Virus record (IMG/VR): IMGVR_UViG_3300010430_000021 | Source: an uncultured virus (IMG/VR IMGVR_UViG_3300010430_000021) | Lineage: Duplodnaviria > Heunggongvirae > Uroviricota > Caudoviricetes | Reading direction: 5' to 3' (one strand) | Length of the DNA stretch: 20,000 nucleotides | Part shown: positions 794 through 16,033 of the stretch, one piece after another | Layout: the number at the start of each line of letters is the position of its first letter | How positions within the stretch are numbered: the first letter of the stretch is position 1 | Made by a program: the position numbers and the translations under genes | Notes under the pieces: model-generated | What the model saw: the letters and a program-made list of their open reading frames with translations, nothing else | Database searches by the model: none | Told to the model about the DNA's origin: nothing

Positions 794-1576
794 TTAATCC
801 TCGTCGTTCTGGCAATAGATGATTGGGCCGCGTTGGACGGGCTCCGCTTTCGCCGCGGCGCCTCGTAGTTGTTGTTCGCTCTTGAGCATTTCGACGTGGC
901 CCTCCAAGAACTCGACCTTCTTCAGAAGCGCGATGTTATCGGCCTGGAGCACTTCGTTGCGTCGGTGCATCTGGCGTTCCCGAGCGCCGCCCTCAGCGAA
1001 GGCTTTGTGCGCGTAGGCGAATTGGGAGTTGGGTTTGGATGTAACCATGCGGCCTGTGACTGTGCCCATCCCTAGCGCTTCGCTACTCTCTCGGTGCATG
1101 GAGATGGCTTCCATCTCGTTTTGGAGCTTCACGTTGCGGTGCCGGAGTTTGTCGTACTCATTGACGAGGATCTTGATTCCATCGGCAGTTGTAGATGCTC
1201 TGTGAATGCCTGGCACTTCTCGAGCCATTTGGCTCAGCTCGGCGTCGGTCATCACGGGGGGAATCTCGCACTCAGGGCGGTCTTTACTTGGGAGCATCAC
1301 TGAAGTGACGAACATCGCCACGAACGTGTGAATTTCCCACTTGCAGGCCATCGCGCCCGCCGTGGACAAGTCTTTCTTGCGAACAAACCACTGGTGCGAG
1401 CTCTTGTCGTACTCGTACCCGAAGCGCGTGAGTATTTCGATGATGGTCTCGTGGAACCTGTCCACGTCGTCGCGGAACTTGATGACGTGACAAAGGTGCG
1501 TCTCGAAGGTCTGTGGGACCGACCCCGAGTTGACCGCTAGTGTGGTTTTTACTCTGTCCCCTTTGTTGCGTGGCAT
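794..1576 (-). CDS. Hypothetical protein (260 aa) with coiled-coil segments and an embedded PolA motif-2-like peptide
   Basis: ATG at 1576 coupled to the upstream stop (TGATG); heptad-like segments flank GTVTGRMVTSKPNSQF. Confidence 0.75.
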   Translation of the reverse strand: MPRNKGDRVKTTLAVNSGSVPQTFETHLCHVIKFRDDVDRFHETIIEILTRFGYEYDKSSHQWFVRKKDLSTAGAMACKWEIHTFVAMFVTSVMLPSKDRPECEIPPVMTDAELSQMAREVPGIHRASTTADGIKILVNEYDKLRHRNVKLQNEMEAISMHRESSEALGMGTVTGRMVTSKPNSQFAYAHKAFAEGGARERQMHRRNEVLQADNIALLKKVEFLEGHVEMLKSEQQLRGAAAKAEPVQRGPIIYCQNDED

Positions 1577-2040
1577 CACTTCACTCCTGGTAGTAGGTTG
1601 GGCATTTTCTTGCCCTTGAGTCGGACTTCTTCCAACTGAGGCAAGGTGTACTGGCCGACTGTTTGGCCGTTGGGCAACACAAGGTGCGCCATGAACTCTT
1701 CGTCGAACGTCGTGATGTCGCTCTCTACGGCCTCGAGCTTGGCCTTGACGACAAGGGCGAGAGCTCGCCAACGTTGGCGGCCTGCCTGCTCCCAAGCCTT
1801 CTCTATGGCCGGCTGAGACCGCTCACGGCCCGTGTCCGTGAGTTGGAACTCATCGTCGTTGATGTCGGGCATCGTGATTTGGAAGCGGACCATGCGCCCG
1901 TCCATGCGAAAGGCGATGATGGCCGCGGTGCCATCCCAGCCGTAGCTGAAACCATCGGCGCCGTATCGCACGAGGGTCTTCTCAATCTCGGCCCTCGATC
2001 GGTCGGAAGTCGTTTTCGTTTGCGCTGCGTATCTACTCAT
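1576..2040 (-). CDS. Conserved phage hypothetical protein (YA..T...SR.EIE..L.RYGA / [18 protein letters not shown] type)
   Basis: Recognisable widespread phage family of unknown function; coupled by overlaps at both ends. Confidence 0.8.
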
Positions 2041-2870
2041 ACCGACACCTCAAATTTGATTGAGGGTTGGGGGTCGTAGCCCGTCAATTCGATGTCCGCG
2101 GCGACGATTTCATCCACGGGCTTGCCTGGTGGAAGCCCTAGGAAGGGCAGCGGGCCACACTCGCGCTTCATTTGCTCGCGTAGGCCCGGGATATGGTTCT
2201 GGTAGGCGTGCGCGTCCCCAATTGTGTGAACGAAATCGCCCCCCATGTAGCCGCACTCGTTGGCGATGAGTCGGGTCAAGAGCGCGTAGCTTGCGATGTT
2301 GAAGGGCACGCCCAAAGCCACGTCCGCCGACCGCTGATACATCTGGCAGTCGAGGTAGCCTTTGAATAGCGCGTCCCCTTCCTTGGGCCTCACGTAGAAT
2401 TGAAACATGAGATGGCACGGGGGCAGGGCCATGTCGGGCACGTCTTCGACGTTCCAAGCGCTCACGATGATGCGCCGGGACATGGGGCTCTCTTTGATTG
2501 TCTTGATGGCTCGAGCGATTTGATCGGTGCCTGCGTAATGAATCTCGGTTGGTGAAGGATTACGTGGGCGTCTTCCCCAGTTGCGCCACTGGTGCCCGTA
2601 GATAGGCCCGAGGTCGCCGTTCTCATCGGCCCACTCGTTCCAAATCTTAGAGTCGAGGTCGTTGATGTTGGTCGAGCCTGAGAGGAACCAAAGGAGCTCG
2701 GCGACTACGGCTTTGAAGTTGACCTTCTTGGTCGTGAGTAGCGGGAAGCCGTCTTGCAGATTGTATCTGTGTTGCGTCCCGAAGATCGATCGGGTGCCGG
2801 TCCCTGTACGGTCGCCGCGGTCGGTGCCGTTGTCTAGGATGTCGTTGACCAATTCCTTGTACTGTTTCAT
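2037..2870 (-). CDS. thyA: Thymidylate synthase ThyA
   Basis: [77 protein letters not shown]; start MKQY at 2870 (ATGA overlap). Confidence 0.97.
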
Positions 2871-3115
2871 TTCGTTCTCTTCTCTGTGCAGTCGGGGCAG
2901 TAGTATTCTTCTGAGCCAGCGCTCGACCATCCTTTGGGCGTGACGAAACTACGCCCCTGCACAACCGCGTGGTTGTCGGGGATAGAATCAACCTCGAAAC
3001 TCTCGGTGAGAGTTACCGTGCCTTCCGCGGTGACGTAGCTCTTGCAATACGACCCTGCGCAGGTGATGTCGATTTCGGCTTTAACTCGGATAGTGAAGTC
3101 GCTGTAGTTGAACAT
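2867..3115 (-). CDS. Small putative Zn-binding protein (CAGSYC...GW...CPDC)
   Basis: 82-aa ORF with two Cys pairs; stop overlaps the thyA start. Confidence 0.7.
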
Positions 3116-3133
3116 TTGTCGGGGCTCTTAGCT

Positions 3134-3382
3134 CTACTCGGGCGCAGCGTCGGCTGCGTCCGCGATTCCCATAAAGGAGAAGTCGAGGTCGCCCGATGCC
3201 CTGTGGCTGATTGTGCCTTCAGCGGGCTCTGTGATGTTGTCCGCGTTGAAGGGGCTGTTGTCGTCGAAGTACCCACGGTCGGCGCAGACTTGCTTAGCTG
3301 CATCAATCGTGTTGAAGAGCATGTACTGCTCCGCAAACGTGAGTCCTGTTTTCCGGCTTTTGTCGATCAGTAGTATTTTCAT
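3134..3382 (-). CDS. Hypothetical 82-aa protein beginning with a Mu-terminase-like Walker A peptide (ILLIDKSRKTGLTFAE)
   Basis: ATG at 3382 overlaps the upstream TGA; GGAGA SD. Confidence 0.7.
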   Translation of the reverse strand: MKILLIDKSRKTGLTFAEQYMLFNTIDAAKQVCADRGYFDDNSPFNADNITEPAEGTISHRASGDLDFSFMGIADAADAAPE

Positions 3383-3963
3383 TCTGGTATCTCCAAGGTT
3401 TGCCCGTCCCAAGCGGCTACGCCGAACTCAGAGCAGGTCGTTATCGTGGTGTATCCTAGGTGGTTAAGGCTCACGACCCAATGAATTTGCGGGTCGAGTT
3501 TGGCTGAGGCGCAGATGTTCCCCGAAGGGCATTCTGTGGGCCTCTTCATGCGTCCGTAGCCGTCCTTGCGGCCACAGTTGGAGCATCGCCAAGCAATCAA
3601 CCCAGGCTTCAAATCGACGCCTGGGCAGTTCTTCTTGAGGAAGAGGAAGAGACGGCGAGCTCGTATCTTGACGAGTAGCTTTGAGCGCTCGTCGGCTTCC
3701 TTTTGGGTTTCGATCGAGGCGCCAACCCAAACATTGGGAGGGATCCCTCCGTTGGGGGGCATCCGGCGCCACTGCTCCGGCATCTCTCTGCCGAAGTGCT
3801 CGAAGTCCTCCACGAGAAGGAGGAATTGCTTGACGGGGTTGTCGGTTATGTCCTTGGCAACGTCATCGAGTTTCGTATGACGTTGCACAGGGACAAAGAC
3901 TCTGCCTTCTAATTCAGGCCAAACAGAGTCAAACCAGTGTGTGCGGGTCGGGAAGTTGGTCAT
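3379..3963 (-). CDS. Degenerate DUF5131 (phage Gp37/Gp68-like) protein
   Basis: N-terminal T..HWFDSVWP resembles T.IEW.D.TWNP; also PPNVWVGASIETQKEADER and IHWVV; the family Cys-cluster motif is absent. Confidence 0.65.
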   Translation of the reverse strand: MTNFPTRTHWFDSVWPELEGRVFVPVQRHTKLDDVAKDITDNPVKQFLLLVEDFEHFGREMPEQWRRMPPNGGIPPNVWVGASIETQKEADERSKLLVKIRARRLFLFLKKNCPGVDLKPGLIAWRCSNCGRKDGYGRMKRPTECPSGNICASAKLDPQIHWVVSLNHLGYTTITTCSEFGVAAWDGQTLEIPE

Positions 3964-4093
3964 GCGGATAGGTGTATCCCCAGGTGTGGTCACAGTCGCA
4001 ACCGTTCCAGGCGATGAGTACGAATTTTTCGGATTGATATTGGCGGCCACAGTATTTCCCCTGTGTGCCGCACTTCGGACAATGGTGAGGATC
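3929..4093 (-). CDS. Possible Zn-ribbon protein (CPKCG...CDCDHTW); start not defined
   Basis: Protein-like frame fills the gap 3964-4091; nearest in-frame ATG is at 4237, inside the upstream gene. Confidence 0.45.
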   Translation of the reverse strand, partial: DPHHCPKCGTQGKYCGRQYQSEKFVLIAWNGCDCDHTWGYTYPHDQLPDPHTLV

Positions 4094-4397
4094 AGTCTTC
4101 GGAGGGCTCGTCCTCTCCAGAACTCCCGTCTTCCTCGTCGGGGGATTCTGGCTCTCCTTGGGCGAGCTCTTCTTTGTTGCAGGTCTCGAGGATCTCTTGG
4201 GCCTGCTCGGCTGCCCTTGAGATTTCTCCGGCTGCATCGAGGAGGGCGTCGATTGCGTTGGCTCGCTCTTTTCCGTCTTTGTCTTCTTCGGGGTAGAGGA
4301 AGAGGGAGATTGCCGCATCGCACGCCTCCGTCGCGCCAGAGATATGCCCGTGTGCCGCCGCGAGGCGGGCCATGATGAAATCGCGTTCTTCTGCCAT
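4092..4397 (-). CDS. Acidic, helical hypothetical protein
   Basis: 101-aa ORF with GAGGA SD and a D/E-rich tail. Confidence 0.75.
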   Translation of the reverse strand: MAEERDFIMARLAAAHGHISGATEACDAAISLFLYPEEDKDGKERANAIDALLDAAGEISRAAEQAQEILETCNKEELAQGEPESPDEEDGSSGEDEPSED

Positions 4398-4400
4398 CGT

Positions 4401-4751
4401 TTACTTTTCCTCTTCTTCTTCTTTGGGTGTCGGGATCGGCTCATAGGGAGGCTTTGGTACTTTGTGGAATTGCTTCACGCTAATGACGGGCTCTCGAGCT
4501 ATCGCTGAGACGTACATAAGGTTTCCGCAAAAGTCGCAGTCAATGTAGAGGGAATTCTCTGTGAGTTTCGACTCGGGGATTGGATCGCGCCCACCATACT
4601 CGGCGAGCATTTTGTGGTTGTTGCGTTTGCCGCACCAAGGGCAAGGAACGTTGCTTTCAACGCCAGTCTTCGACTTCTTGCTGATGGGGTGATCTACTGC
4701 GAACGCTTGCTTGCGTTCCTCTTCACTTTTGTAGGGTCCAAAATCGGACAT
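4401..4751 (-). CDS. Zn-ribbon protein (CPWC...CDFC)
   Basis: 116 aa; TAATG coupling to the upstream gene; AGGAG SD. Confidence 0.75.
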   Translation of the reverse strand: MSDFGPYKSEEERKQAFAVDHPISKKSKTGVESNVPCPWCGKRNNHKMLAEYGGRDPIPESKLTENSLYIDCDFCGNLMYVSAIAREPVISVKQFHKVPKPPYEPIPTPKEEEEEK

Positions 4752-4912
4752 TAGTTTCTCTCCTTCTCTTCTTCGCTCTCGACGTGTTGGGTGAGGATGA
4801 TGCGAAGGTACTCAGACAGGCTGAGCACTCCCGACTTCTTTTGCACTTTCACAAGTCTCTTTAGGAGCTTTTCAGGGAGGCGTGTCTGTACTGCCTTTTG
4901 CTTCGCTGCCAT
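4751..4912 (-). CDS. Ribbon-helix-helix (CopG/Arc-like) DNA-binding protein
   Basis: 53 aa: beta strand KAVQTRLP, helix EKLLKRLVKVQKKSG, then SLSEYLRIIL (typical RHH pattern); first gene after a promoter. Confidence 0.75.
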   Translation of the reverse strand: MAAKQKAVQTRLPEKLLKRLVKVQKKSGVLSLSEYLRIILTQHVESEEEKERN

Positions 4913-4918
4913 GGCCAC

Positions 4919-4948
4919 TGAGTAGCATAGTGTTGCAGATTGTTGCAA
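4919..4948 (-). promoter_or_regulatory. Putative sigma70-type promoter (TTGCAA-18-TACTCA, preceded by TGc) overlapped by a TGCAACA direct repeat
   Basis: Direct repeats at 4931-4937 and 4941-4947 (10-bp period); -10 lies 6 nt before the ATG with no SD. Confidence 0.5.
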
Positions 4949-4956
4949 ACTGATTC

Positions 4957-4997
4957 AAAGAAAAAACCCCCTCTCGGGTCATAACTCCGAGAGAGGG
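4957..4997 (-). terminator. Rho-independent terminator
   Basis: Minus strand CCCTCTCTCGG-loop-CCGAGAGGGGG followed by TTTTTTCTTT. Confidence 0.85.
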
Positions 4998-5027
4998 CAG
5001 TGTGGTTGGAGCGATTGGCGTCGGCTC

Positions 5028-5321
5028 CTATTGGATAATCCTACTCTTGCCTTTGTCTGGTGTCGAGTCTGGATGGATGACTGTTATCGGCTTATCTGCG
5101 GTGAAGGTAAACTTCATGATGCCCTCTTGGCCGGTCCCCTGGATTTGGACTTTCCCCATCATTGTGAAGAGGCCAGGAATGGACGGGTCCGAGGTCACGG
5201 CGCCCATCATCTGCCCCATGCCTGGGAAGAAGATTTGGACGGGGATGCTTTTGTCTTCAGCCTCGGAGGCTGCGATGCGTCGGTTGAGATCGATGGCGAT
5301 TGGATGTTCGGCGAAATTCAT
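5028..5321 (-). CDS. Hypothetical 97-aa beta-rich protein
   Basis: ATGA-type coupling to the upstream gene; ends just before the terminator. Confidence 0.7.
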   Translation of the reverse strand: MNFAEHPIAIDLNRRIAASEAEDKSIPVQIFFPGMGQMMGAVTSDPSIPGLFTMMGKVQIQGTGQEGIMKFTFTADKPITVIHPDSTPDKGKSRIIQ

Positions 5322-5848
5322 ATCGGATTCATACCAGAAAACAACCGTGCCAGGAGGGTCGGGTCGGGCCCGATTTGAACGGCCTTGATACCGTGTGAGA
5401 CGAGCTTCTGAGCTCCCTCACCAGTAGGGCAAATCACGGCGTCGTAGACCTTCAGAGACTCGATCTCCTTGTCCACCATGATGTTCGTGCCTTCGAGGAT
5501 GGCAACGTTGGGCACGCCCACCGTGTAGAGGCCAGGGATGGCCATGGCGGGCTCGTAGGCGACGCCATCGCCGCCCTGGGAGTTCCCGAACTGAGCGGTG
5601 CTGATCGTCGCTCCTAGGGCCACGCCGGGCGGGATGCAGACCACGTTGATGAAGCGCATCTTGAGCGCAGTCATGAAGACGTGCGGCACTTTGTCCCAGG
5701 GGTGCATTCCAAAAGGGACAACACCGATAGGCATGACGCGAACCCCGAGTCCCGTCTTATCGACGGCCTCAAGGTATGGGAATGCGAGACCCTCCGAGTC
5801 CATGCTCGGTAGGGTCACGCAGGCGTAGCGGATCAGTGCTTCGTTCAC
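5318..5848 (-). CDS. Hypothetical protein resembling the N-terminal Rossmann half of a GT-B glycosyltransferase
   Basis: Alternating beta/alpha pattern and YDAVICPT...AQKL.SHGI segment; no C-terminal donor-binding domain. Confidence 0.5.
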   Translation of the reverse strand: MNEALIRYACVTLPSMDSEGLAFPYLEAVDKTGLGVRVMPIGVVPFGMHPWDKVPHVFMTALKMRFINVVCIPPGVALGATISTAQFGNSQGGDGVAYEPAMAIPGLYTVGVPNVAILEGTNIMVDKEIESLKVYDAVICPTGEGAQKLVSHGIKAVQIGPDPTLLARLFSGMNPI

Positions 5849-5854
5849 GCGGAG

Positions 5855-5863
5855 ACCCTACCA
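5855..5863 (-). promoter_or_regulatory. Putative extended -10 (TGgTAGGGT) for a leaderless transcript
   Basis: 6 nt before the GTG at 5848; no SD; overlapped by palindrome CCTAC-cat-GTAGG (5857-5869). Confidence 0.4.
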
Positions 5864-5881
5864 TGTAGGTGTGACAAGAGC

Positions 5882-6559
5882 CTAGTGGACCGCTTCGTCG
5901 ATCATGAGGTCCATCTCGTCGTCGCTGAGGTCGGTTCCAAAGCCACTTGAGAGAACTCCCATGTCGAGGTCTTCGAGCTCGTCCTTGATTTCCTCCGCGG
6001 AGAGCGTGGCAATCGGTGGAGGAAGCTCGCCGCCCGTTGCGCCGCCGCTGGTGTTGTAGGCGGGGACAACGGATGTTGTGCGGACGGGTGCCGGCAAGAC
6101 GGACGTGCCACGAGGCGAGGCCACCGTCGAGGTGTTGAGCTGAGGCATTGGCTCACCAGGCTGCACGTTCAGGTTGTGGTCGGAGACCATCCAACCGTAC
6201 TTGGGAAGGTAGGCTTGAACCGCTGTCTGGATGGCAGCGATGCTCGCGCCGACAACAACAGGGGTGTGGTATTGCTTGACTCGATCGATCCGGTGGACCA
6301 AGAGCCAGGCGGCGCCCGCTGCGCCTACCGTCGAGAGCACGCTTGCGTGCTTGGCTAGCTTTGGGAATCTCTTCAAGATCATCCCGTGAACGACTCGAGA
6401 AGCCATCCGGGTGCCTGCATAACCGGCGAACCCGGGGACGACAAACTCTGCGAGGTCTTGCAACGCGGGCGGGTTTGACTTCGCCACGATGTCGTTGTTC
6501 TTCTTCGCTCGTTTGGATGCGCGCTTCTTGTAGGCCGCTAGCCCTTTTTTCTTTGCCAT
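5882..6559 (-). CDS. Putative membrane-associated protein: basic N-terminus, NP motif, three hydrophobic/amphipathic helices, Pro/Thr linker, acidic tail
   Basis: ATG at 6559 with AGGA SD downstream of a strong promoter; 225 aa. Confidence 0.75.
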   Translation of the reverse strand: MAKKKGLAAYKKRASKRAKKNNDIVAKSNPPALQDLAEFVVPGFAGYAGTRMASRVVHGMILKRFPKLAKHASVLSTVGAAGAAWLLVHRIDRVKQYHTPVVVGASIAAIQTAVQAYLPKYGWMVSDHNLNVQPGEPMPQLNTSTVASPRGTSVLPAPVRTTSVVPAYNTSGGATGGELPPPIATLSAEEIKDELEDLDMGVLSSGFGTDLSDDEMDLMIDEAVH

Positions 6560-6592
6560 TGTTGTCCTGTCAAGGTGGGCCGGAGAGCCGAT

Positions 6593-6622
6593 AGTATAAG
6601 CATCCCCCGGATTTACGGTCAA
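6593..6622 (-). promoter_or_regulatory. Sigma70-type promoter TTGACC-18-TATACT
   Basis: Near-consensus hexamers in the gap between the MTase stop and the ATG at 6559. Confidence 0.75.
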
Positions 6623-6624
6623 CT

Positions 6625-7470
6625 TCAAGCTGCTAGATGCGCTCTGAGCAGTCCAGGGCGATTTGTGATGAGCAGGCAGGGCACTTTTCCACGGCCTGCC
6701 TTGTTGCGGTTGACCGAGCGCCTCTCCTGCGCGGGCACCGAAGTAGCGTAAGTATACCAAGACCTTACCTTCTCAGTGTCCGAGTTGTGGCAAAGGAAGG
6801 CCGCGCCGCGTTGGTGAGCGTAATAGAGCTCTGCGCTCAATCGGTCTTGACTTACGCCCGTGTACCCGTCCGCGGAGTAGCCAACATAGGTGCCGTCGTA
6901 GGGCGGGTCGGCGTAGATCAGGTCGCCCTCGCCGGCCTGGCGCACGCACGGCTCGAAGTCCCCGTGCTGGATTTCCGTGCCTTGCAGAGCTTCGGAGGCG
7001 GCGCCCATTCGCTCGAGTAGAGCGTCTGTGATCTTGTCCGATGCGTGCCCATAGGCTGCGTTCATCTTCCCCTTCTTGTTCGTGCGCCACAGTCCGTTGA
7101 AGCAGTGCGCGTTGAGGTAGATCATTCTCGCCGCGGCCTCGACATCCGTGTCGGGGTCGCTCGCTCGCACAGCGTAGTAGTTGTCTTCTTGCGTGCCCCA
7201 CTCGCGCAACTCGCACAAGAGCAGCCCGACATCTACGGGCGTCTCTTTGACGGCGCGGTAGGTACGCACGAGGTCTTCGAGGGTGTCGTTGACCACCATC
7301 CTCTCGAGCCCTAGACCTAGCGCCATCGCGAGCCCACCACTGAAGGGCTCGTAGTAGGTGCCCCCTGTTTCTTCGAGGTACGTCTTGATGGTCGGTGCCA
7401 GTGTCGGCACGAATGCTTTCTTTCCCCCTACCCATTTCAGGAACGGGATTGCCTTCGGTTCAAATGTCAT
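6625..7470 (-). CDS. Dam/DpnM-family (D12 class) N6-adenine DNA methyltransferase, orphan
   Basis: PFLKWVGGK, YYEPFSGG, FNGLWRTN, GDF, DLIYADPPY; ATGA-coupled start at 7470. Confidence 0.93.
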   Translation of the reverse strand: MTFEPKAIPFLKWVGGKKAFVPTLAPTIKTYLEETGGTYYEPFSGGLAMALGLGLERMVVNDTLEDLVRTYRAVKETPVDVGLLLCELREWGTQEDNYYAVRASDPDTDVEAAARMIYLNAHCFNGLWRTNKKGKMNAAYGHASDKITDALLERMGAASEALQGTEIQHGDFEPCVRQAGEGDLIYADPPYDGTYVGYSADGYTGVSQDRLSAELYYAHQRGAAFLCHNSDTEKVRSWYTYATSVPAQERRSVNRNKAGRGKVPCLLITNRPGLLRAHLAA

Positions 7471-7691: not shown

Positions 7692-8139
7692 GAGGCCCCC
7701 TTGTGAATCGGACCCCAATCCCAACGGCGTCTACCGTGTTGTGGAATAGCGACATGGCCTTGGGCTTCTCGATGCGGTCGCGCTCGTCTTTCGAGAGCTT
7801 GCTCAAGATGCGCTCGGTCATGATTTTCTTGGGCGTCCCACCCTTCCAGTTGTGAGGCTCGTACTCCACGATGCGGCAGCGAGGGAGCCTGCCCGTCACG
7901 CGGCCCGACATGAGCAAGAGCTCAACAAGGTCGGCGGGCCTCTTGCTGTCCTTCCGAATCTGCATTCGCTCGATCACAATCGTTCGGATCAGCACCGCGC
8001 TCACCGGAATCTTCTCGATCACGTTGTCCGCGGTCTCTGCCCACGTATTGCCTCGGGCGAGCCACGCCGTCGTGAGCTCCTTGTCTTCCCACAAGGAAAC
8101 CCCTGCCACCTTCTTACCTGGATCTAAACATAGAATCAT
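7675..8139 (-). CDS. RuvC-like Holliday junction resolvase
   Basis: MILCLDPG (catalytic D), IVIERMQ (E), PHNWKG, HNTVDAVGIG (D). Confidence 0.85.
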   Translation of the reverse strand: MILCLDPGKKVAGVSLWEDKELTTAWLARGNTWAETADNVIEKIPVSAVLIRTIVIERMQIRKDSKRPADLVELLLMSGRVTGRLPRCRIVEYEPHNWKGGTPKKIMTERILSKLSKDERDRIEKPKAMSLFHNTVDAVGIGVRFTRGPHALGK

Positions 8140-8447
8140 TTCTCTCTCCTGAATTTCCCGCGCCACCAAAACCCCTTGGCCTTTGGAGGTTTGACTTCCA
8201 CCTTCTTGAGCGCCTCTTTGACTTCCCTCTTCTCTCGGGACTCTAGGCGCTTCTTTTTCTTCTCCGCGGGGCTGAGGCTCACTGCTTGCTTCTCAAGGGC
8301 ATCCCAAAGCGATAGAGGTTTTGGGTTCATACACATGCTGCAAGTGTGGTCCTCGTGCTTGACGCCCTCGAGCTCTCGGACGTAGTGCCCGCACTCAAGC
8401 AAGATCCAAACGTCGTCTCCGCTATTTTCAAACTGGAACCTACTCAC
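8136..8447 (-). CDS. Small Zn-binding protein (LECGH...CSMC) with a basic C-terminus
   Basis: GTGA and ATGA overlaps at the two ends. Confidence 0.7.
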   Translation of the reverse strand: MSRFQFENSGDDVWILLECGHYVRELEGVKHEDHTCSMCMNPKPLSLWDALEKQAVSLSPAEKKKKRLESREKREVKEALKKVEVKPPKAKGFWWRGKFRREK

Positions 8448-10435
8448 GCCGCCATCGCCTCTACGTTGCGAGAGAAGTCCTCAATCCACTCCTTGCCTTC
8501 CTTCTTGCAAGGGACAAGGACTTGCTCTCCGTTGATTTCACGGAAGACGGGCGCCGCGCCCTTCTTCCAGGTGAAGCACATAGCCCCCGTCGCGCCGATA
8601 GGTACGTCGGGAACAAAGCGCTCCATGCTTTCTCTCATGATTTTCTCGAGCTCCTTCATCGCTCGGCTCGCACGCACGCGGCCTAGGTCGGTACCGTCAA
8701 AGGGAATCTCCATTCCAATCTCATCGTGAGCGAAGAGCCAAGGCCGGCAGCCGAACAACGGAGATTCTGTGTCCACGTAGCAAGCGTAGGCCACGTCGAA
8801 GAGTGCTTTCTTGGCGCCCATCGCGGCGAGGTTTTGGAAGTACCCGTTGCAGATCTGCGTGTACCCAACATCGCCTCGAATGAGTCCCGAGATGAAGAAC
8901 TCAACTTGGTTGATACCAAGGTCCTTGTCCTTGCTGTCGGAGACTTCCGAGCAGAAGGCGAAGTACCGAGTCATCTCCGGCCACATTGCGCGGAAGCCTG
9001 CGTGAAGCTCCTTGGCGCGGGCAACCGACATGTCTACGCCAAAGCCGCGGGCGTACTCGATGAAGGCCAGGTGGCCCATGCCGCCAGCCATTCCGTAGTT
9101 CGCAATCTTGGCGCCCTGTCGTGTCTCTTTGACTTCGGGGTCCTCGTTCTCGAGAAGCTCCATTGCCTCTTCGTAGGAGAGTCCGAGCATCGACGCGGCG
9201 AATGCACAGTGAAGGTCTTTGCCCTCCTTGATGGCCTCGGCAATCTCGGAGTGTCCAAAGAGCCAGATGCACACTTGCGCGAGCGTCCGCATCTCGAGCG
9301 TGTCGTAATCACAAAACCCGTAGATGTAGTTGGGCCTGGCTTCCCAGCAATCGCGAACGCCGCCATCACGAGGAAGGTTCTGGATGTTGGGCTTGGAGCA
9401 CGACGTTCGATACGTCTCAAGGATGCAGTTGTAGCGCGGGTTGATTGGTACTCGCGTACCAAGCTCGAGCATTGGAATGTACGTCGAGAGTAGTTTGCCG
9501 ACTCGCACGAGCTCGGCGACGGCCACCATGCCAGGGTGCGCTTCAATCTCGGGATACTCACGCATGAGCATCGTGTCGCGAGACGTGGACACGCGGCCTG
9601 TGTCTGTCTCGGGAACTTTCAGCCCGTGTTGGGTATAGGTGTCATCGACAAGGGTGTAAATCTTGTCCATGATTCGCGCCCACTTGTACTCGCCTTTGTC
9701 CTTCTTGATTCGGACGAGCCCGTACTTGCGGCAAATCTCGACTTGCGCATCGTATGCCTCTTGGAATTCTTCTTTGAGGATCGCAATGTCTTCGGCGGTC
9801 GTTCTCGACCCCCAAACCGACTGGAGTTGTAGCGCCCAATCTGGTTGGGTCTGCGACCACTCCATCTCGAGTAGTTTGTGGTGCGTGTCTTTCTCTTGCT
9901 CGAAGAAGATTTCGAGGGCGTAGATCGAATCGAAGAGCGAGTATTTGAGCGCTGCCTCGGGCCACTCCTCGACGGGGACGTTGTGGAGCGTGTAGTAGCG
10001 CAAGCGCCACACGTCGCCTTCTTTGTCGCCAAAGGTCCACTTGCCTAGGATTCGGTGACACAGATCAGCCAGCGCGTACTTCTGCGCCTTGAACTCGCCG
10101 GTCTCTTCGTTGAAGACGTACTTGAGCTCGCCTTTGGCGTTGTCGAGAATCTTCTGCCGGATGCCTGTGTCGTGGATGCGTCCTTCGATGTAGGCCGCGA
10201 ATACGAGAGGTAGCAGTCTCGGACGCTCGGCGACACAGACAGAGAGGTCGAACCGTGCGTTGTGCGCAACAAGGTGGTCTCCTGCAAGCAGCGCGGCCTC
10301 GAGCCAGTCGAGTCCCTCTTCGGTCAAGAGTACGCCGGAATCCCCGTTCGCGCTCGCGAACGAGAGGCACACCATCTTCGGGATTGGGTTGCCCGGCGTG
10401 ATGAGGAAGGTCTCAACGTCGAATGCGTGGATCAT
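8444..10435 (-). CDS. polA: Family A DNA polymerase with 3'-5' exonuclease domain
   Basis: ExoI FDVET, ExoII HNARFD, ExoIII YSLFDS; SKPNIQNLPR; motif A CDYDTLEMR; motif B RQGAKIANYG; motif C FAHDEI. Confidence 0.95.
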   Translation of the reverse strand: MIHAFDVETFLITPGNPIPKMVCLSFASANGDSGVLLTEEGLDWLEAALLAGDHLVAHNARFDLSVCVAERPRLLPLVFAAYIEGRIHDTGIRQKILDNAKGELKYVFNEETGEFKAQKYALADLCHRILGKWTFGDKEGDVWRLRYYTLHNVPVEEWPEAALKYSLFDSIYALEIFFEQEKDTHHKLLEMEWSQTQPDWALQLQSVWGSRTTAEDIAILKEEFQEAYDAQVEICRKYGLVRIKKDKGEYKWARIMDKIYTLVDDTYTQHGLKVPETDTGRVSTSRDTMLMREYPEIEAHPGMVAVAELVRVGKLLSTYIPMLELGTRVPINPRYNCILETYRTSCSKPNIQNLPRDGGVRDCWEARPNYIYGFCDYDTLEMRTLAQVCIWLFGHSEIAEAIKEGKDLHCAFAASMLGLSYEEAMELLENEDPEVKETRQGAKIANYGMAGGMGHLAFIEYARGFGVDMSVARAKELHAGFRAMWPEMTRYFAFCSEVSDSKDKDLGINQVEFFISGLIRGDVGYTQICNGYFQNLAAMGAKKALFDVAYACYVDTESPLFGCRPWLFAHDEIGMEIPFDGTDLGRVRASRAMKELEKIMRESMERFVPDVPIGATGAMCFTWKKGAAPVFREINGEQVLVPCKKEGKEWIEDFSRNVEAMAA

Positions 10436-10605
10436 TTCCGATGCTCCATCTCTACGTCGTCATCGTTGAGCTTGGTGTGCCTACCGTCTGTGTGTGTCCA
10501 ACACCCGTGAAGACCGTCGTGGTCTTTCTCACGCCCACACAAAATAATCACGGTCCCGTGGAAGGCTTTGAAAGGTACAGGGTGATTGCAGAAGTGAAAC
10601 GTCAT
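10432..10605 (-). CDS. 57-aa Cys/His protein (C...CGREKDHDGLH), absent from the ORF track
   Basis: Hand translation MTFHFCNHPVPFKAFHGTVIILCGREKDHDGLHGCWTH...; ATGA overlaps at both ends. Confidence 0.75.
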   Translation of the reverse strand: MTFHFCNHPVPFKAFHGTVIILCGREKDHDGLHGCWTHTDGRHTKLNDDDVEMEHRK

Positions 10606-10913
10606 GGCGCGGTCAAATCGTAGTTAGGGTGGACGGAGCCTCGGAGCTTGTCGGCGTCGATGGCGAGGATGCGGGGGTCTTCAAACGCTTTCATCCCGCT
10701 ACGGCTTTCCTTCGGCTCGAAGTGCTCGACGGCCAGCATGATTTTGCTGGGGTAGACGATGGGGCGGTCGCACGACCACGCGGCACAAGGAAGCACCAGC
10801 TTCTCTAGCAGTCCGCGGGTCTGCCTAGCGTCGTGGAGGGAGCACACGGGAAAGTCCTCGATGTACCCCTCAACAACGTAGTCGCAACCGTATACGGCGC
10901 AACTCTGGCTCAA
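10602..10913 (-). CDS. Zn-finger protein (CAVYGC...CSLH, CAAWSC)
   Basis: TTG at 10913 overlaps the tmk stop; 103 aa. Confidence 0.65.
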   Translation of the reverse strand: MSQSCAVYGCDYVVEGYIEDFPVCSLHDARQTRGLLEKLVLPCAAWSCDRPIVYPSKIMLAVEHFEPKESRSGMKAFEDPRILAIDADKLRGSVHPNYDLTAP

Positions 10914-11485
10914 AGCTCGAGCACCCTCAGAACTTCGGCGTGAACTTCTTCGGGGCTCTGGTCTGCTTTGACGATGAAGACATCGCTCACGATGTCCTGG
11001 GCCGACCTGTAGAACTGTCGCGCTTCCATCAAGCGCTTCTCGTTCATCTCGTACTCGTCTTCGCGCTTGGGTCGTCGTCGGAACGATTCGCCAACCGAGA
11101 TGTCGAGAACGATCCACTGGTGAGGCTGGATAAGTCTTGCGTGGACTCTCAAAAGCCAATCGAGGGGGAGTCCATCCGTTTGCCCGTAGACAAGGCCGCT
11201 CATCCAATAGCGGTCCAGAATCACGAGCTCGCCCCTTGCGTGGGCCTCTTCGATTTTGTGTGCGCTCTCGTAACGGTTCACCGTCATGAGAGACTGTAGG
11301 ATTAGACCGTCGCGTTCGTCGTCTTCGGACTTCAAGAGCCCGGAGATCTTCTTCCCTGTGTCCGTGGTGTAGTTCGGGAAGTCGAACTTCGATACCTTAA
11401 TGCCCTTGTTGATAGCGTGACGCTCCAACATGCGAACCTGTGTCTCTTTGCCACAGGCATCAATTCCTTCAAACGCGACGATCAT
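10910..11485 (-). CDS. tmk: Thymidylate kinase
   Basis: IVAFEGIDACGKETQ P-loop, FPNY, VILDRYWMSGLVYG, LDIS; AGGAG SD. Confidence 0.93.
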   Translation of the reverse strand: MIVAFEGIDACGKETQVRMLERHAINKGIKVSKFDFPNYTTDTGKKISGLLKSEDDERDGLILQSLMTVNRYESAHKIEEAHARGELVILDRYWMSGLVYGQTDGLPLDWLLRVHARLIQPHQWIVLDISVGESFRRRPKREDEYEMNEKRLMEARQFYRSAQDIVSDVFIVKADQSPEEVHAEVLRVLEL

Positions 11486-11507
11486 AATCTCTCCTGATAG
11501 GGGTGGC

Positions 11508-11527
11508 CCGGAGCCCGAAGGCTCCGG
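11508..11527 (-). other. Stable cUUCGg hairpin without a U-tract
   Basis: Minus strand CCGGAGCC-TTCG-GGCTCCGG between the putative ssb and tmk. Confidence 0.75.
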
Positions 11528-11544
11528 TACCGGGTGGTGGGTTG

Positions 11545-12063
11545 TTAGTTTGCTTCTTCGACGGTCTCAGGCCACGACGATGGCCTGTCGGTGTACCAAC
11601 TGTGGATGGTGAAAGGTGAGCCCTTCCCTTTGTTGGTCACGATGCCCGTCGTCTTGAGATAGACGATGGTGTCGACGAGCAAGTTGTCCTCACCGCAGGC
11701 GACGTTGTACATGCCCTTCATGTCCGTCCAATCTTCGTCGTTGTTCGGATCGAGCAGATCGAGGCCATGCTCCTCGTCGCGAGAGTAGACCGTCCATGCG
11801 GCGCGGAGGAAGTCTGCGACGTTGCCCGCGGCAGCATCAAGGGACAGCTTGACGACTTGAGATGCGCAGAAACCTTCGCCCTGCTTCTCGTTGTCGCTCT
11901 CGATGATACGGGCCTCAACGATGAAGAAGTCGTCGGAACGTCCCTCTTTGTCGATGCACTTCGTAACGGCCACTTTGTAGTGGTGGTCGGGATCGAAGTA
12001 GACGCCGCCTTCGCTGCCTTTTGCGGTTGGTAGTTTGTCGAAAAAGTCTTTTGCTTTAGCCAT
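11545..12063 (-). CDS. Putative single-stranded DNA-binding protein (OB-fold, DUF669-like)
   Basis: Size, beta-rich aromatic pattern, acidic end and position among helicase, nuclease and polymerase genes. Confidence 0.55.
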   Translation of the reverse strand: MAKAKDFFDKLPTAKGSEGGVYFDPDHHYKVAVTKCIDKEGRSDDFFIVEARIIESDNEKQGEGFCASQVVKLSLDAAAGNVADFLRAAWTVYSRDEEHGLDLLDPNNDEDWTDMKGMYNVACGEDNLLVDTIVYLKTTGIVTNKGKGSPFTIHSWYTDRPSSWPETVEEAN

Positions 12064-12067
12064 GTTC

Positions 12068-14263
12068 TTATTCCTCTGTTTGTTCTTGGTTTTGGTTTTG
12101 GTTTTGGTTTTGCCCGAAGGCTTCTATTTGTTTTTGTCTCTCTGAGTTGATTAGCTTCTGTGCGATTTTCTTCTGATGGATTCCCTCCCCGTCTGCGTAC
12201 AAAATCTTCTGGCGTTGGCCTGTTGAGTCTTCGATGTACATGGCGTCGTTGATGACATCGTTCATGCACTTGTCCAAAGCGTCGGTGTGTCCGTAGCAAT
12301 CGTCGATCACCAAGTCCGATAGCTGCCCGGGCCTGTGCGTTCTACCAGCTTTTTGCTCGTAGAGTTTGCCGTTCGTCGGCATTGTGGTGGTGATGTTGGT
12401 GTTGTAATGCTGGAGATTCTTGCCGGTCGCTTGCGTGGCCATACTACAGATGATCACGTCTTCTTTCGACGGCGAGGCATCGGTCCCTGCTCCGTAGAGA
12501 GGCCATCCCGTCTTCTCGTGAAGGAGCTCGCCGATGACCGTGGACTCGTACCAGACAATAACCTTGCGCCCGTCGTCAACATACTTCTGAGCTCGCTTGA
12601 TGGCGTCATCGACAAGGAACGGATCGATCATCACCGCTTCGGTCGGCGGCGTGGGATTGTAGAGGGTCTTGACCTTCTTCCAGGTGATGTACTCTTCGCA
12701 AGGGAAGAGTTTCGCGTCGGGCGCGGGCCTCAGTTTGTTGACGCCCGTGCAGAAACTTCGGTGGTCGGGGTCGGGGTAGATTTTGCACTCGACCGCTACC
12801 CACTCTTTGCCTTTGCGTGTGCAGTCTTCGGGGTGGTCGGGGTCAACCTTGCAGTCGTACTCCGTCGTCTGCATACCGCAATCACCATCTTGGCAATCTT
12901 CATCGCCGCAGGCGTCGCCGGCATCGCAGGGGAATTTGCGCTTGGTACATTTGCTGTGGTCTTCGCCAACCCACTCACCTTCGCAATCGCTGTGGTCCTC
13001 AACGGATTTGCGCCAACGCTCCGCGGCATTGGTGACTAGGAGCTCGGAGTCGAGACCTTGCCCGCCCGTCTTGAGCCGTTCGCGCACTTCACGCTTCCAG
13101 GCGGCGCGAGCCTCGAGCCACGCAACGTCTTGCTCGCTAGGGCCACCTTCGGGCCAAACCCATCGGTAGTAGAAGCCGCACGACATCTGGCGACAAAAGC
13201 GCCAAAACGAAATGGGAGATGCGTACTCTTCCCCGTTGTAAGCCCACGTCTCGTGAACTTCTTCGAGCGCCTCCGTGACGGATGCGGGGATGAACTCAGG
13301 TTGGATGATGCGGACGAGTAGGCTTGTGCCCAACGCGCCCTTCTCAGTCGCAACGACGCCGCGTGTCCCTACGAGACGGCGCCGGAATCCTACCCGGACG
13401 TTTCCTTCGTCCTCTGGCTGGACGAAATGACGTAGAACACCAGGATCAACAGGGGAGGTCGGGCGCACGTCGAGAGCACCGGACCACAGTTTGAGCTCAT
13501 TGTGGTTGTTGGGGAGAGGGGAGTTTTTGCGCAGGCAGAGCTCGAGGAGGTGCGCGTAGTCGAGAATGCTTCTCGATGTCATGGTGCCCGATAGGGCGAC
13601 CAAGCGGCAATGCGGATTCTCGCGCATGTACCTTCGGAATCGTTTGGTCCTTGCGCTTGTCGGTCGGCGCAGGTTGTGGGCTTCGTCTAGGATGATGAGG
13701 TCGGGGTTGAGCTCATCGAGCAAGCCCGTGTTCTTCGCGAGTGACAACTCGCTGTAAGCCAAGATGCGGACGATGCGTTCAAGGGGTAGATTGAAGTGAG
13801 GCCCGTAGACTTCCTCGATCTCCCTCGCGAGCTGGTCGCGCAACTGTGGCGGTACCAGGAGCACGGCTCTCTCGGAGTCCATCGCCTCGGGCATGAGTAG
13901 CGTGATGAGCGTCTTGCCGTGGCCGACGCCAATCGGGCCAAAGAGCCCGTTGGCGTAGCAAGCCTCGATGAGCGCTGCGTTCTGAATGGGGCGAAGCTGC
14001 ATCGTGCCCCCGTCCTTGCGGAAGATGCTGGTGAGGTCGGTGACGTTCTCCAGATCTAGGTCACGGACGGGGACCTTCATGATGCGTGAGAACTCAGAAG
14101 AATTCGTCACAACATCCTTGTACCCGTTCTTGCGGGCGTCCTTGCTCTTCACCTTGTTCAAGGCTTGAGCGAATGCGGTCCTTGGATCTGCTTTTTCGAT
14201 CTTAGACCCAACCGCATCGAACGCTTCCGCGAACGGGTTGTGTTTGAGCTCCGCTTCAGACAT
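12068..14263 (-). CDS. Superfamily 2 (SNF2-like) DNA helicase with a Cys-rich insertion
   Basis: LRPIQ, GVGHGKT, ILDEAH, LSGT, ATGKNLQ, YEQKAGRTHRPGQ. Confidence 0.92.
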   Translation of the reverse strand: MSEAELKHNPFAEAFDAVGSKIEKADPRTAFAQALNKVKSKDARKNGYKDVVTNSSEFSRIMKVPVRDLDLENVTDLTSIFRKDGGTMQLRPIQNAALIEACYANGLFGPIGVGHGKTLITLLMPEAMDSERAVLLVPPQLRDQLAREIEEVYGPHFNLPLERIVRILAYSELSLAKNTGLLDELNPDLIILDEAHNLRRPTSARTKRFRRYMRENPHCRLVALSGTMTSRSILDYAHLLELCLRKNSPLPNNHNELKLWSGALDVRPTSPVDPGVLRHFVQPEDEGNVRVGFRRRLVGTRGVVATEKGALGTSLLVRIIQPEFIPASVTEALEEVHETWAYNGEEYASPISFWRFCRQMSCGFYYRWVWPEGGPSEQDVAWLEARAAWKREVRERLKTGGQGLDSELLVTNAAERWRKSVEDHSDCEGEWVGEDHSKCTKRKFPCDAGDACGDEDCQDGDCGMQTTEYDCKVDPDHPEDCTRKGKEWVAVECKIYPDPDHRSFCTGVNKLRPAPDAKLFPCEEYITWKKVKTLYNPTPPTEAVMIDPFLVDDAIKRAQKYVDDGRKVIVWYESTVIGELLHEKTGWPLYGAGTDASPSKEDVIICSMATQATGKNLQHYNTNITTTMPTNGKLYEQKAGRTHRPGQLSDLVIDDCYGHTDALDKCMNDVINDAMYIEDSTGQRQKILYADGEGIHQKKIAQKLINSERQKQIEAFGQNQNQNQNQEQTEE
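12086..12112 (-). repeat. (CAAAAC)n hexamer repeat encoding QNQNQNQNQ
   Basis: Tandem TTTTGG units on the + strand. Confidence 0.9.
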
Positions 14264-15918
14264 TAGCGTCCTGCCGCCTCAACAACATCGGTGGCGTGAG
14301 GAATCAGCGCTGTTGCGATGTCTTGACCAAGACCGCTGCGTACAGCGACGAGAGCGGACGGCACGCCGTCTTCCTCAATCTTGGCTTGGATGGCTCGAGC
14401 GAGGGCAACCTGCTTCTCGCTGTACCCCGTGAGTCGGAAGTCGGGGAGCTCGGTCGCTTCCAGAGTCGCCTCGTTCAGCTTCACAAGCGCCTCGGCGAAC
14501 CAATCCTCGGCCATGATGGCTGTGTGGTCCTGGCCCTTCACAGGGCGGCAGCCGATGTAGAGCGTGAACTCACGCTTGGACTTGCGCTTGGTGGTCTTCT
14601 TGGCCGGCGCCTTGCCCTCCTTCTTGGCAGCGGCAGCGGCCTTCTTGGCCTCCTTGGCGGCCTGCTTCTCGGCGGCCTCGGCGCGGATTCGCTCCATTTC
14701 CTCCTTGGCAGTCTCGCGAGGGGCTCCATCGGGGGGCGTAATGGTGTCTGAGGCTTCTGAATCCGCTTTCTCAGCGGTGTTCTCGGCGGCAGCCTCCACG
14801 TATTCCCCGGTTCCCTCATCGACGGCCTCAGCGGCCTCAGCGGCCTCTTCTTCCTTGGGGGCCTTGGTCGTGTTGACGGGCTTTTTCTTGAGCATCGCGG
14901 CAAAGCCTCCAGCCTTGGCCGGTGCCTTCTCCTTGGGAGCCTCTTTCTTGGCGGCGGGCGCCTTCTTGGCGGCGGGCGCCTTCTTGGCGGCGGGCTCTTT
15001 CTTCCCTTCAGCTTGCGCGTCTTTCGCGCCCTTAATCTTGTCCATGAATCCAGCCATATCTATTTTCTTCTTCCTTGGTTTTGGTGTGGTGATGGCAAAC
15101 AGAGACTCGGTTGCTCGAATGCCGCACTTGGGTTTGTAGTCGCATCCACCGTAAGAGGGGCAATGCGCTGTGTTTGGTTCTAGGTCTTCAAAGGACTCGA
15201 CGAGTGCGGCCTTCTCCATCTCGAACATCACGGCTTGGTCTCGTGCCCAATACTTCGCGTTGCTCTCTCTGGAGATGATTTGCTTTACCTTGAGTACCTT
15301 TGTGCTTTTTGGTTTCTTGACAGCGACGCCGCTGGTGACTTTGACGTAGTAGTGCTCGACTTGCACTTCCATGAGGTCTTCGTCGATTTCAAAGGCCCAC
15401 TTGGCATACATGTTCATCTGTATGTCTTCGTGAAGCTCTGCCGGCGTGAGTGCTGTTCTTAGGTCTGTTTTTGTTTTCAGGTCGCCGATGACAAGACGCC
15501 CTACTTCGTTGATGAAGAGGAGATCGATTAGGCCAACAATGGGATGGCCGTCAACAGCGTCGTGGTACCCGGTTATGACTTTCCCCGAGACATGATCGAG
15601 GAAGAACTTTCCCTCGGCTCGGACTTTGGTTTTGTTTGGGTCCGGTATTAGATCAGCAGCGACAAGCCATTCGATGTAGCGGAAGTACCCAAGCTCGTGA
15701 GTTTGGGGAATCGTTCCTGTGTTGAGATAATCCTCGAGGATCGAGTGAATCTCTTTACCCCTGATTTGCGCAGGAGTGTCGGGCGTCTTGTCTCCCAGAA
15801 TCCACTTGAGGTACCAAGTGCGTTTGCAATTGATGTACGCCTGGATCTGGGACGCTGAAAAGTTACGGATTGGTTTCGGTTTTAGAACCTTCTCTAATTC
15901 TTCGGGCGGCAACGTCAT
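14263..15918 (-). CDS. PD-(D/E)XK exonuclease (Cas4/AddB-like, 4-Cys Fe-S staple) with a long Ala/Lys/Glu-rich linker and a C-terminal domain
   Basis: SASQIQAYINCKR, GKEIH, GLIDLL, GDLKT, QMNMYA, CPSYGGCDYKPKC. Confidence 0.9.
   Translation of the reverse strand: MTLPPEELEKVLKPKPIRNFSASQIQAYINCKRTWYLKWILGDKTPDTPAQIRGKEIHSILEDYLNTGTIPQTHELGYFRYIEWLVAADLIPDPNKTKVRAEGKFFLDHVSGKVITGYHDAVDGHPIVGLIDLLFINEVGRLVIGDLKTKTDLRTALTPAELHEDIQMNMYAKWAFEIDEDLMEVQVEHYYVKVTSGVAVKKPKSTKVLKVKQIISRESNAKYWARDQAVMFEMEKAALVESFEDLEPNTAHCPSYGGCDYKPKCGIRATESLFAITTPKPRKKKIDMAGFMDKIKGAKDAQAEGKKEPAAKKAPAAKKAPAAKKEAPKEKAPAKAGGFAAMLKKKPVNTTKAPKEEEAAEAAEAVDEGTGEYVEAAAENTAEKADSEASDTITPPDGAPRETAKEEMERIRAEAAEKQAAKEAKKAAAAAKKEGKAPAKKTTKRKSKREFTLYIGCRPVKGQDHTAIMAEDWFAEALVKLNEATLEATELPDFRLTGYSEKQVALARAIQAKIEEDGVPSALVAVRSGLGQDIATALIPHATDVVEAAGR
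14945..14995 (-). repeat. 18-bp tandem repeat (about 2.8 copies) encoding PAAKKA
   Basis: TTCTTGGCGGCGGGCGCC twice plus a partial third copy. Confidence 0.95.
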
Positions 15919-16033
15919 TTAGAATTTTCTGCTCCATGCTCTTGTGTATCTCGGTCCCCCGCCTCATGGCTTCGGACTGCTTAGGTTTGTTGTTTGCGTA
16001 GGTGATGTACCAACGTCTCGGGCATTCGTTCAT
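15863..16033 (-). CDS. 56-aa ORF similar to the N-terminus of the adjacent nuclease, absent from the ORF track
   Basis: MNECPRRWYITYANNKPKQSEAMRRGTEIHKSMEQKILN...; AGGA SD; starts 3 nt after the primase stop. Confidence 0.7.
   Translation of the reverse strand: MNECPRRWYITYANNKPKQSEAMRRGTEIHKSMEQKILNDVAARRIREGSKTETNP

Follow-up and report, generated by a model that had tools for sequence, protein, structure and literature searches.

Five enzyme-like open reading frames in an uncultured virus probably have different origins and include two apparent pseudoenzymes

Among the genes of an uncultured tailed-phage-class virus from marine sediment are five open reading frames (ORFs) that recall parts of phage enzymes, which raises the question of whether they form a single system or arose separately. 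The window (the whole stretch of 20,000 nt that was analysed) is part of its 75,302-base contig, the other 55 kb of which lie outside the analysis. All five ORFs, here A to E, are on the minus strand, as are the neighboring genes described below, and each is an open frame (start positions used: A, 1576; B, 3382; C, 3963; D, 5848; E, 16033). A first-pass annotation of this DNA had read them as a possible repertoire of intact, non-catalytic decoys, three with an isolated signature of a core phage enzyme and two resembling domain-deleted enzymes. Our best explanation for the whole, to which we assign a probability of about 68%, is that the five ORFs have different origins and make up no single system. 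Three of the five (C, D, and E) are real enzyme derivatives, B is borderline, and A is not one.

The codon bias of A, B, C, and D is 0.15–0.23, compared with 0.11–0.26 for conserved genes; that of E is 0.03, calculated over 36 codons, and one other small gene is similarly low. Contigs from two public runs, which may be the source samples, largely cover E with zero differences. We sought strain variants for dN/dS, and none of those listed for four runs fell within the five ORFs. Promoter and terminator counts were at chance level.

ORF A (794..1576) encodes a 260-aa protein with a coiled-coil C-terminal half. In homologue searches it retrieved only itself among 523 candidates (lengths 143–455), and its profile matches were limited to weak coiled-coil hits (ZapB/DivIC/bZIP). 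The look-alike of PolA motif 2 is correctly placed at 1019-1066 (A residues 171–186) and is flanked by two coiled-coil stretches. Its resemblance to motif 2 of cellular PolI has a p of 2e-7 per position, which counts against a chance origin. No polymerase match was found in Pfam or PHROG, and a useful PDB sequence match was found for neither A nor B. We nevertheless judge the motif to be at chance level, because A scores <3 bits against an HMM of 30 PolI sequences and because 41 of 2,282 control ORFs (~2%) match one terminase family as strongly as A matches its motif. By its sequence, A is a coiled-coil orphan whose motif arose by chance. The window also has a gene for an intact family A DNA polymerase (8444..10435; PF00476, E 7.6e-19). 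Used alone as a query, this polymerase recovered no relative in viral contigs; relatives were found with alignment queries. The PolA proteins of five close relatives, on contigs of 65–85 kb (P0002, P0004, P0007, P0014, and P0016), are 61–78% identical to it.

The case of B (3137..3382) is closer. This acidic orphan (82 aa, pI 4.4) is modeled as a small alpha/beta fold, and the look-alike of the Mu-terminase Walker A motif (3329-3361, correctly located by the first-pass annotation; B residues 8–18) falls in the loop after strand 1. B residues 2–30 share the strand and Walker A residues of the Mu gp28-type large terminase (NC_000929 gp28), with 14 of 29 positions identical, exactly on Walker A. 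Mu gp28 has 551 aa, whereas B lacks Walker B, the nuclease domain, the full ATPase domain, and, by its predicted structure, the ATPase fold. The likeness nonetheless admits a tentative reading in which B is a true graft, with a Mu-type terminase strand, P-loop, and first helical turn recombined into a small scaffold of phage origin; the product would then bind phosphate or serve as bait. The match has a p of about 5e-10 per position, for a motif window and a 31-residue trim that were picked after the match had been seen, in a scan spanning some 250,000 windows. None of 5.3 million shuffled positions scored as high as B, and none of the 2,282 control ORFs equaled it against any of 542 terminase-family windows. 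In a tblastn search of 50,697 phage records, the first 31 residues matched only 48 Pseudomonas phage records (E 2), and 7 of the 20 listed are annotated as large terminase. Against a graft, the terminase HMM match covers residues 2–31 only, with an E of 0.26 when scaled to a library of 38,880; in Pfam an unrelated family scores highest, and full-length B has no match at E 10.

The predicted structure also bears on B. Its model (pLDDT 82) resembles uncharacterised phage proteins of 66–70 aa, with TM up to 0.62/0.72. One of these structural neighbors, G026, has a short turn where B has its motif, as judged by eye, which would suit a graft, but no sequence alignment between the two was obtained. 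Among the PDB matches listed for the model, the best of which has a Z of 4.8, there is no NTPase, and a P-loop family is still conceivable. For a link to DUF7336 there is one Atlas structure match, below the threshold used for naming, and the profile matches, in 5 of 201 genomes, are all sub-cut-off. Homologues of B were absent from 1.84 billion representatives, bar four repeat-rich noise matches. We regard B as a small viral orphan, predicted to be globular with a common small-phage-protein fold and a Walker A look-alike in a loop. That look-alike is nearly twice as likely to be a coincidence as to have been grafted in from a terminase.

ORFs C and D fared differently, and the description of both as domain-deleted enzymes was borne out. 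C (3379..3963, 194 aa) is a true, degenerate member of DUF5131 (Gp37/Gp68), matching PF07505 at E 1.4e-7 (31.7 bits, cut-off 28.9) and aligning across the barrel core. Intact DUF5131 proteins have a three-cysteine iron-sulphur motif, a GGESG motif, and a C-terminal part; both motifs are present in the two intact phage proteins we compared. C has lost all three features and retains a four-cysteine insert. Its syntenic orthologue in one relative (L018/G001), the only orthologue found, has identical losses. The two share 40% amino acid identity with synonymous sites saturated, and the corresponding value for PolA is 42%. Since the orthologue has the same deletions and conservation equals that of PolA, C is not debris; it appears to be an old, conserved, selected pseudoenzyme that is apparently non-catalytic. 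Additional scans for further C or D loci returned nothing new. DUF5131 is counted among the radical SAM clusters (PMC9477430), and C also has a weak match to PADLOC PDC-M30B (E 0.009). The homology, motif losses, conservation, and synteny of C can be read directly from these comparisons; its function, like that of every other ORF here, we infer. Most likely, C lost catalysis and was retained for binding; it would now be a radical-SAM barrel, catalytically dead, whose insert binds zinc and whose role is binding or regulatory.

D (5318..5848, 176 aa) is a true N-terminal half of a GT-B glycosyltransferase (GT), namely a stand-alone acceptor-side domain. It aligned with residues 2–138 of a 379-aa GT (hhalign probability 80, E 1.4e-5, 133 columns), and its Atlas structure matches were to the N-terminal GT-B domain (TM 0.51–0.66). 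Although it has no usable Pfam, PHROG, or NCBIfam match, it resembles the N-terminal Rossmann domain of GT4-like GT-B enzymes (PF00534) and of Gtf3_N (PF26334). GT-B glycosyltransferases have a C-terminal donor-binding domain, which D lacks, stopping at the domain boundary. We identified a family of 29 stand-alone viral proteins of 135–200 aa, in a search that covered lengths of 69–343 aa, and both length and invariant residues are kept among them. In two relatives (L012 and G001) D adjoins a full, two-domain GT4-like gene, which in G001 stands beside other glycan-modifying genes. The full GT is absent from the D locus of the window, and the complete genome of G003, which has D, contains no full-GT profile match. 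The 3′ end of D is overlapped by an uncharacterised 97-aa gene (5028..5321). L012, G001, and G003 also have a small gene resembling it, which comes after D or after the full GT; this likeness was noted by eye, and tblastn did not detect it.

D is apparently an old, selected, non-catalytic-looking GT-B derivative and a paralogue of the GT4-like gene that adjoins it in two relatives. In the likeliest single reading, with a chance a little short of even, D is a subunit without catalysis that binds the acceptor or serves as an adaptor, and it stems from a duplicated copy of the virus's own GT. The adaptor reading is weakened because the full GT is missing at the locus and in complete G003; as D persists where the full GT was not found, it would probably have another partner too. 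Split GT-B enzymes exist, for example Alg13/Alg14, and D aligns along the entire N-terminal domain, so it could be one half of an active split enzyme, with the nucleotide-sugar half supplied by another gene of the virus or of its host. We consider this unlikely, given that the neighbor in L012 and G001 is already a complete two-domain enzyme and that nothing in G003 matched a full-GT profile.

E (15863..16033) encodes 56 aa and is the 5′ stub of a nuclease gene of the PD-(D/E)XK (Cas4/RecB-like) type. It matches PDDEXK_1 (PF12705) at E 1.6e-4, with 22.1 bits against a cut-off of 22, and the match stops at profile position 49 of 247. Of the three core-enzyme signatures once ascribed to A, B, and E, that of E reflects true homology, that of A is judged to be due to chance, and that of B is borderline. 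E shares the N-terminal helix-turn-helix motif of PD-(D/E)XK/Cas4-like phage exonucleases over 38 homologous codons only, and lacks the first helix and the entire catalytic core that those enzymes have. The view that all five ORFs are intact with plausible starts therefore holds for the open frames and not for E as a domain.

The setting of E suggests how it came about. It lies in frame behind a primase-helicase-like gene (16037..18826), separated from it by one stop codon and one codon, and ahead of an intact resident PD-(D/E)XK nuclease (14263..15918; PF12705, E 3e-15). It comprises 38 codons between the primase stop and the nuclease start, and its last 18 codons read through over that start. 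In five relatives (L003, L004, L006, L008, and G001) the primase and nuclease genes abut or overlap, and the extra nuclease N-terminus occurs in the window alone among 59 sequences with the motif (117 searched). A recent duplication of the resident nuclease was rejected, as that protein comes 20th among 52 by similarity to E, and the two have no common DNA stretch >11 bases. An N-terminal extension of the nuclease by frameshift was also rejected, as an in-frame stop directly precedes the nuclease start. E is probably what recombination left, as a stub at the boundary, of a foreign nuclease gene. It may perhaps have been retained because ribosomes leaving the primase gene are carried across it to the start of the nuclease.

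We also examined relatives that have this gene block in common with the window. Pfam searches found no terminase in the contig of G001, in G002, or in G003; this absence concerns the relatives, and two of the three terminase Pfams also missed the terminase of G004. A candidate capsid protein of G002, putatively of the jelly-roll kind, gave a single-sequence fold with a pLDDT of 30 and no profile match in the PDB. On gene content, the group seems to have no recognisable capsid or packaging gene. In a scenario with a slim chance of being correct, B is a grafted Walker A and forms, with the dead enzymes C and D, a mimic set in a probably tailless temperate virus, B baiting or priming host terminase sensors against tailed phages. 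One such sensor could be Upx, for which binding of unfolded ATPase strands is predicted. If this were true, a terminase-less virus could exploit B in competition with tailed phages.

About as slim is the chance of the decoy repertoire proper, in which most or even all of these ORFs would be mimics without catalysis, there to titrate pattern-recognition sensors of the host. Sensors for terminase and for family A polymerase do exist, all five frames are open, and four have normal codon bias. These sensors recognise whole core folds, however: the Avs2-terminase interface covers 2,833 square angstroms, and for Avs19 the polymerase core domain is necessary and sufficient. A and B do not mimic such a surface, each carrying a short motif on another scaffold (predicted, for B). 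The potential triggers in the window are PolA and the nuclease. Stand-alone terminase-like phage proteins are known (Ksap1, Ksap2, and T4 vs.8; PMC13601566), and anti-defence is one suggested function for them. Like B, they are small and lineage-restricted and look like a portion of the terminase ATPase. In their case the likeness is to the ATPase fold, whereas B shares only about 15–29 residues and has another predicted fold, and Ksap1 and Ksap2 activate Avs2 rather than block it (PMC13601566). DSAD1, which competes with the tail tube protein at DSR2 according to structures, is a precedent for a phage protein that blocks a sensor at the site of its trigger; it is not described as a trigger fragment in the available text of that source (PMC11087589), and such blocking by the ORFs here would be hypothetical.

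The distribution of the ORFs also speaks against a common repertoire. They are spread over 15 kb and have no tag in common, at most two of the five occur in any one of the relatives searched, no terminase was found in the three relatives named above, and the parent enzymes of C and D are accessory ones rather than the core proteins reported as Avs triggers. The first-pass annotation had proposed to check whether each motif is kept in homologues; A and B fail this check because neither has homologues, and E is a single occurrence among the sequences searched. The opposite extreme, that all five ORFs are gene debris, is the least probable reading: it suits E, a nuclease 5′ stub and probable recombination scar, and catalytic parts are missing from C and D, but it is already contradicted for those two, which are conserved and selected (C as strongly as PolA at saturated synonymous sites, D in length and invariant residues across 29 proteins), and B has a high-confidence predicted fold.

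In combination, the results favor separate origins for the five ORFs. The decoy kit fails, and short motif look-alikes are seen to arise easily. Being small and, by prediction, well folded, B offers an inexpensive way to see if a Walker A motif on its own can engage a terminase sensor. We found no description in the literature of the pseudoenzyme families reported here in such uncultured viruses lacking recognisable capsid and packaging genes. These two conserved families, one of half glycosyltransferases and the other of dead DUF5131 proteins, are the modest but real outcome.

The gene content of the window, which comes from a source contig of 75,302 bases, is that of the replication block of an uncultured virus, with genes for a primase-helicase, PD-(D/E)XK nuclease, helicase, thymidylate kinase, PolA, Dam methylase, thymidylate synthase and DEDD exonuclease, all on the minus strand. 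The helicase (12068-14263) carries a Cys/His-rich segment, roughly 100 residues long (near residues 425-525), where relatives do not align, and the oligoribonuclease-like DEDD exonuclease (66-788, PF00929) was not found in the related loci compared. We collected 94 related loci, partly redundant, via PolA alignments, plus five longer virus records (G001-G005). Marine sediment runs carry DNA near-identical to the window; position 7985, inside a resolvase-like gene, is T in all four sequencing runs compared and C in the window. On the plus strand, divergent from the primase, lies the 5′ end of a probable tyrosine integrase (19802-19999). This fragment is 42% identical to the G001 integrase, found at the same position, which suggests a temperate life style for the window virus.

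The first-pass annotation had suggested that five minus-strand ORFs, A to E, may be a repertoire of decoys that titrate host sensors, such as those of the Avs type, or partner proteins. Direct reading of the window bears out the three motifs on which this partly rested, a PolA motif 2 look-alike in A (1019-1066), a Mu-terminase-like Walker A in B (3329-3361) and a nuclease N-terminal motif in E (15863-16033). ORFs A to D have the codon bias of conserved genes, and that of E, measured over only 36 codons, is lower.

The motif in ORF A (794-1576) is a chance look-alike. It reaches p 2e-7 per position against motif 2 of cellular PolI. As a control, 2,282 unrelated viral ORFs were compared with a single terminase family, and 41 of them matched one or another of its windows at p 2.5e-7. 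With the PolA motif 2 of its own virus family the score is 1.9 bits, which shuffled sequence also attained at 518 of 5.4 million positions, and the full PolI HMM gives <3 bits. A found no homologue but itself among 523 candidates of 143-455 aa, in a database that holds relatives with 61-78% identical PolA on 65-85-kb contigs. Its Pfam matches are weak and to coiled-coil families.

The homology of ORF E (15863-16033) to nuclease N-termini is real. Its 38 homologous codons span the gap from the stop of the primase gene (16037-18826) to the start of the resident nuclease gene (14263-15918). As read directly from the sequence, E continues the reading frame of the primase beyond its stop codon and one further codon. 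A good ribosome-binding site serves E, whose final 18 codons run over the nuclease start in another frame. Comparison of sequencing runs ruled out an assembly error. A profile of 51 nuclease N-termini matched in 59 of 117 sequences, with two copies only in the window; primase and nuclease adjoin or overlap in G001 and in loci L003, L004, L006 and L008. Because the resident nuclease ranks only 20th of 52 in likeness to E, and their longest common DNA stretch is at most 11 bases, E must derive from another nuclease lineage. The simplest reading is a stub left by recombination, possibly retained for translational coupling.

Of the isolated enzyme signatures, that in ORF B (3137-3382) is borderline. 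B is identical to Mu gp28 at 14 of 29 residues on the Walker A. None of 5.3 million shuffled positions matched the terminase motif as well, the 15-residue core has p of about 5e-10 per position, and none of the 2,282 control ORFs fell below 1e-8 against the terminase family. The first 31 residues matched, among 50,697 phage records, only 48 Pseudomonas phage records (E 2), and 7 of the 20 listed among these are annotated as large terminase. Several points count against the resemblance: the motif windows were picked post hoc, after the match was seen, B scores 10.7 bits with the complete Mu-terminase HMM (at the size of the PHROG library, E 0.26), full-length B has no match at E 10 and no PHROG family, and its best Pfam match is unrelated. 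Among 1.84 billion representatives, B retrieved itself and four repeat-rich proteins only. Folded alone (pLDDT 82), it shows the order strand, loop, short helix, strand, helix and C-terminal hairpin. The best structural neighbours are uncharacterised phage proteins of 66-70 aa (TM up to 0.62/0.72, none at E 0.001); one of these has a short turn at the position of the motif, as placed by eye without sequence alignment. We estimate the chance that B descends from a terminase at about one in three, and rate a decoy role as much less likely.

In the search for a terminase that a decoy might shield, three terminase Pfams found none in the complete records G002 and G003. One matched in G004 and G007, and the sensitivity of this search is limited, as the other two missed the terminase of G004. 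The Mu-terminase HMM had no match in 75 called ORFs of the G001 contig or 116 of G003, and in a PHROG scan of 65 and 50 ORFs, respectively, neither terminase nor major capsid families turned up; matches labelled as tail or portal arose via peptidase and NUDIX domains, alongside one short virion-protein match. No A32 ATPase was found in the relatives searched. The virus group looks tailless, and the window virus would by extension be so too. None of the terminase, major capsid, portal and A32 families was seen in G001:C75 (L112-L115), G003 (L102-L106) or G002 (L097-L101), which are 68-84 kb long. G001 and G003 have a block of unknown genes in common, including a 64%-identical pair (L115:4960-5394 and L102:15181-15672), possibly the capsid protein of a tailless virus group not yet described. 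Both also encode transglutaminase-like genes with weak intein and LAGLIDADG matches (L112:852-2342 and L102:6583-8076), and G002 has at least 10 paralogous ORFs, some 165-200 aa in length, that have an N-terminal motif in common (L097:9421-19966 and L098). A comparison of L022 and L024-L095 with G004 and G007 shows the primase-nuclease-helicase-PolA-resolvase module both in records with a terminase (G004, G007) and in others that have none, which suggests that it was swapped between tailed and tailless viruses.

ORFs C and D had been described as resembling domain-deleted enzymes, and this holds for both in what they lack. They lie in an accessory block, parts of which are common to the window, the 68-kb contig of G001, G003 and L012. 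ORF C (3379-3963) is a DUF5131 protein, above the Pfam cut-off, from a family placed among radical SAM clusters (PMC9477430). Unlike two intact phage DUF5131 proteins, it is without the three-cysteine motif, GGESG and the C-terminal part. The one orthologue found, which occupies the corresponding place in the gene order of G001, lacks these parts too and, like C, retains a four-cysteine insert; C was not found in G002, G003 or G006. The two are 40% identical (four-fold sites 0.35), compared with 42% (0.29) for the PolA of the same virus pair. Given the common losses and a conservation close to that of PolA, C is, as judged from sequence, an old pseudoenzyme under selection.

ORF D (5318-5848) corresponds to the N-terminal part only of a glycosyltransferase. 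A four-sequence profile, scored on 8,000 candidates of 69-343 aa, defined a family of 29 members, 135-200 aa long (three being query rows), with four invariant residues in 30 rows and no Pfam domain in the 29. As a family they align with residues 2-138 of a GT4-like enzyme of 379 aa (probability 80, E 1.4e-5), whose gene lies next to D in L012 and G001. Other glycan-modifying genes lie near the D locus in G001. The enzyme is missing at this locus in the window and in complete G003, and was found nowhere in G003. D is most likely a paralogue without catalytic activity that binds the acceptor or serves as an adaptor, and that has one or more partners besides. A nearby conserved gene (5882-6559, minus strand; orthologues in L012, G001 and G003) encodes a basic N-terminus closing with an Asn-Pro motif and a hydrophobic middle; a similar start occurs in L115:6093-7409 and L102:12477-14045.

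Avs families are described as sensing core proteins, among them terminase and family A polymerase, through their folded cores; in the case of Avs19, the core domain of the polymerase is both necessary and sufficient (PMC13581612). The targets named in the abstract include neither glycosyltransferases nor DUF5131. The interface between Avs2 and the terminase ATPase buries 2,833 square angstroms, and Ksap1 and Ksap2, which resemble this ATPase, activate Avs2, with an anti-defence role left open by the authors (PMC13601566). DSAD1 shows that competition at a sensor can be effective (PMC11087589). No account of motif-sized enzyme fragments as decoys came up in our literature searches, nor in passages of PMC11702601 and bioRxiv 2025.06.06.658234. 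For Upx, binding to unfolded ATPase strands is predicted, independently of sequence (PMC13601566), and such binding would be the best opening for a short mimic. The first-pass observation is partly confirmed, and a decoy repertoire made up of all or most of the five ORFs is not supported (less than one chance in ten). What remains of the proposal is two conserved pseudoenzymes, C and D, and one borderline motif, in B.
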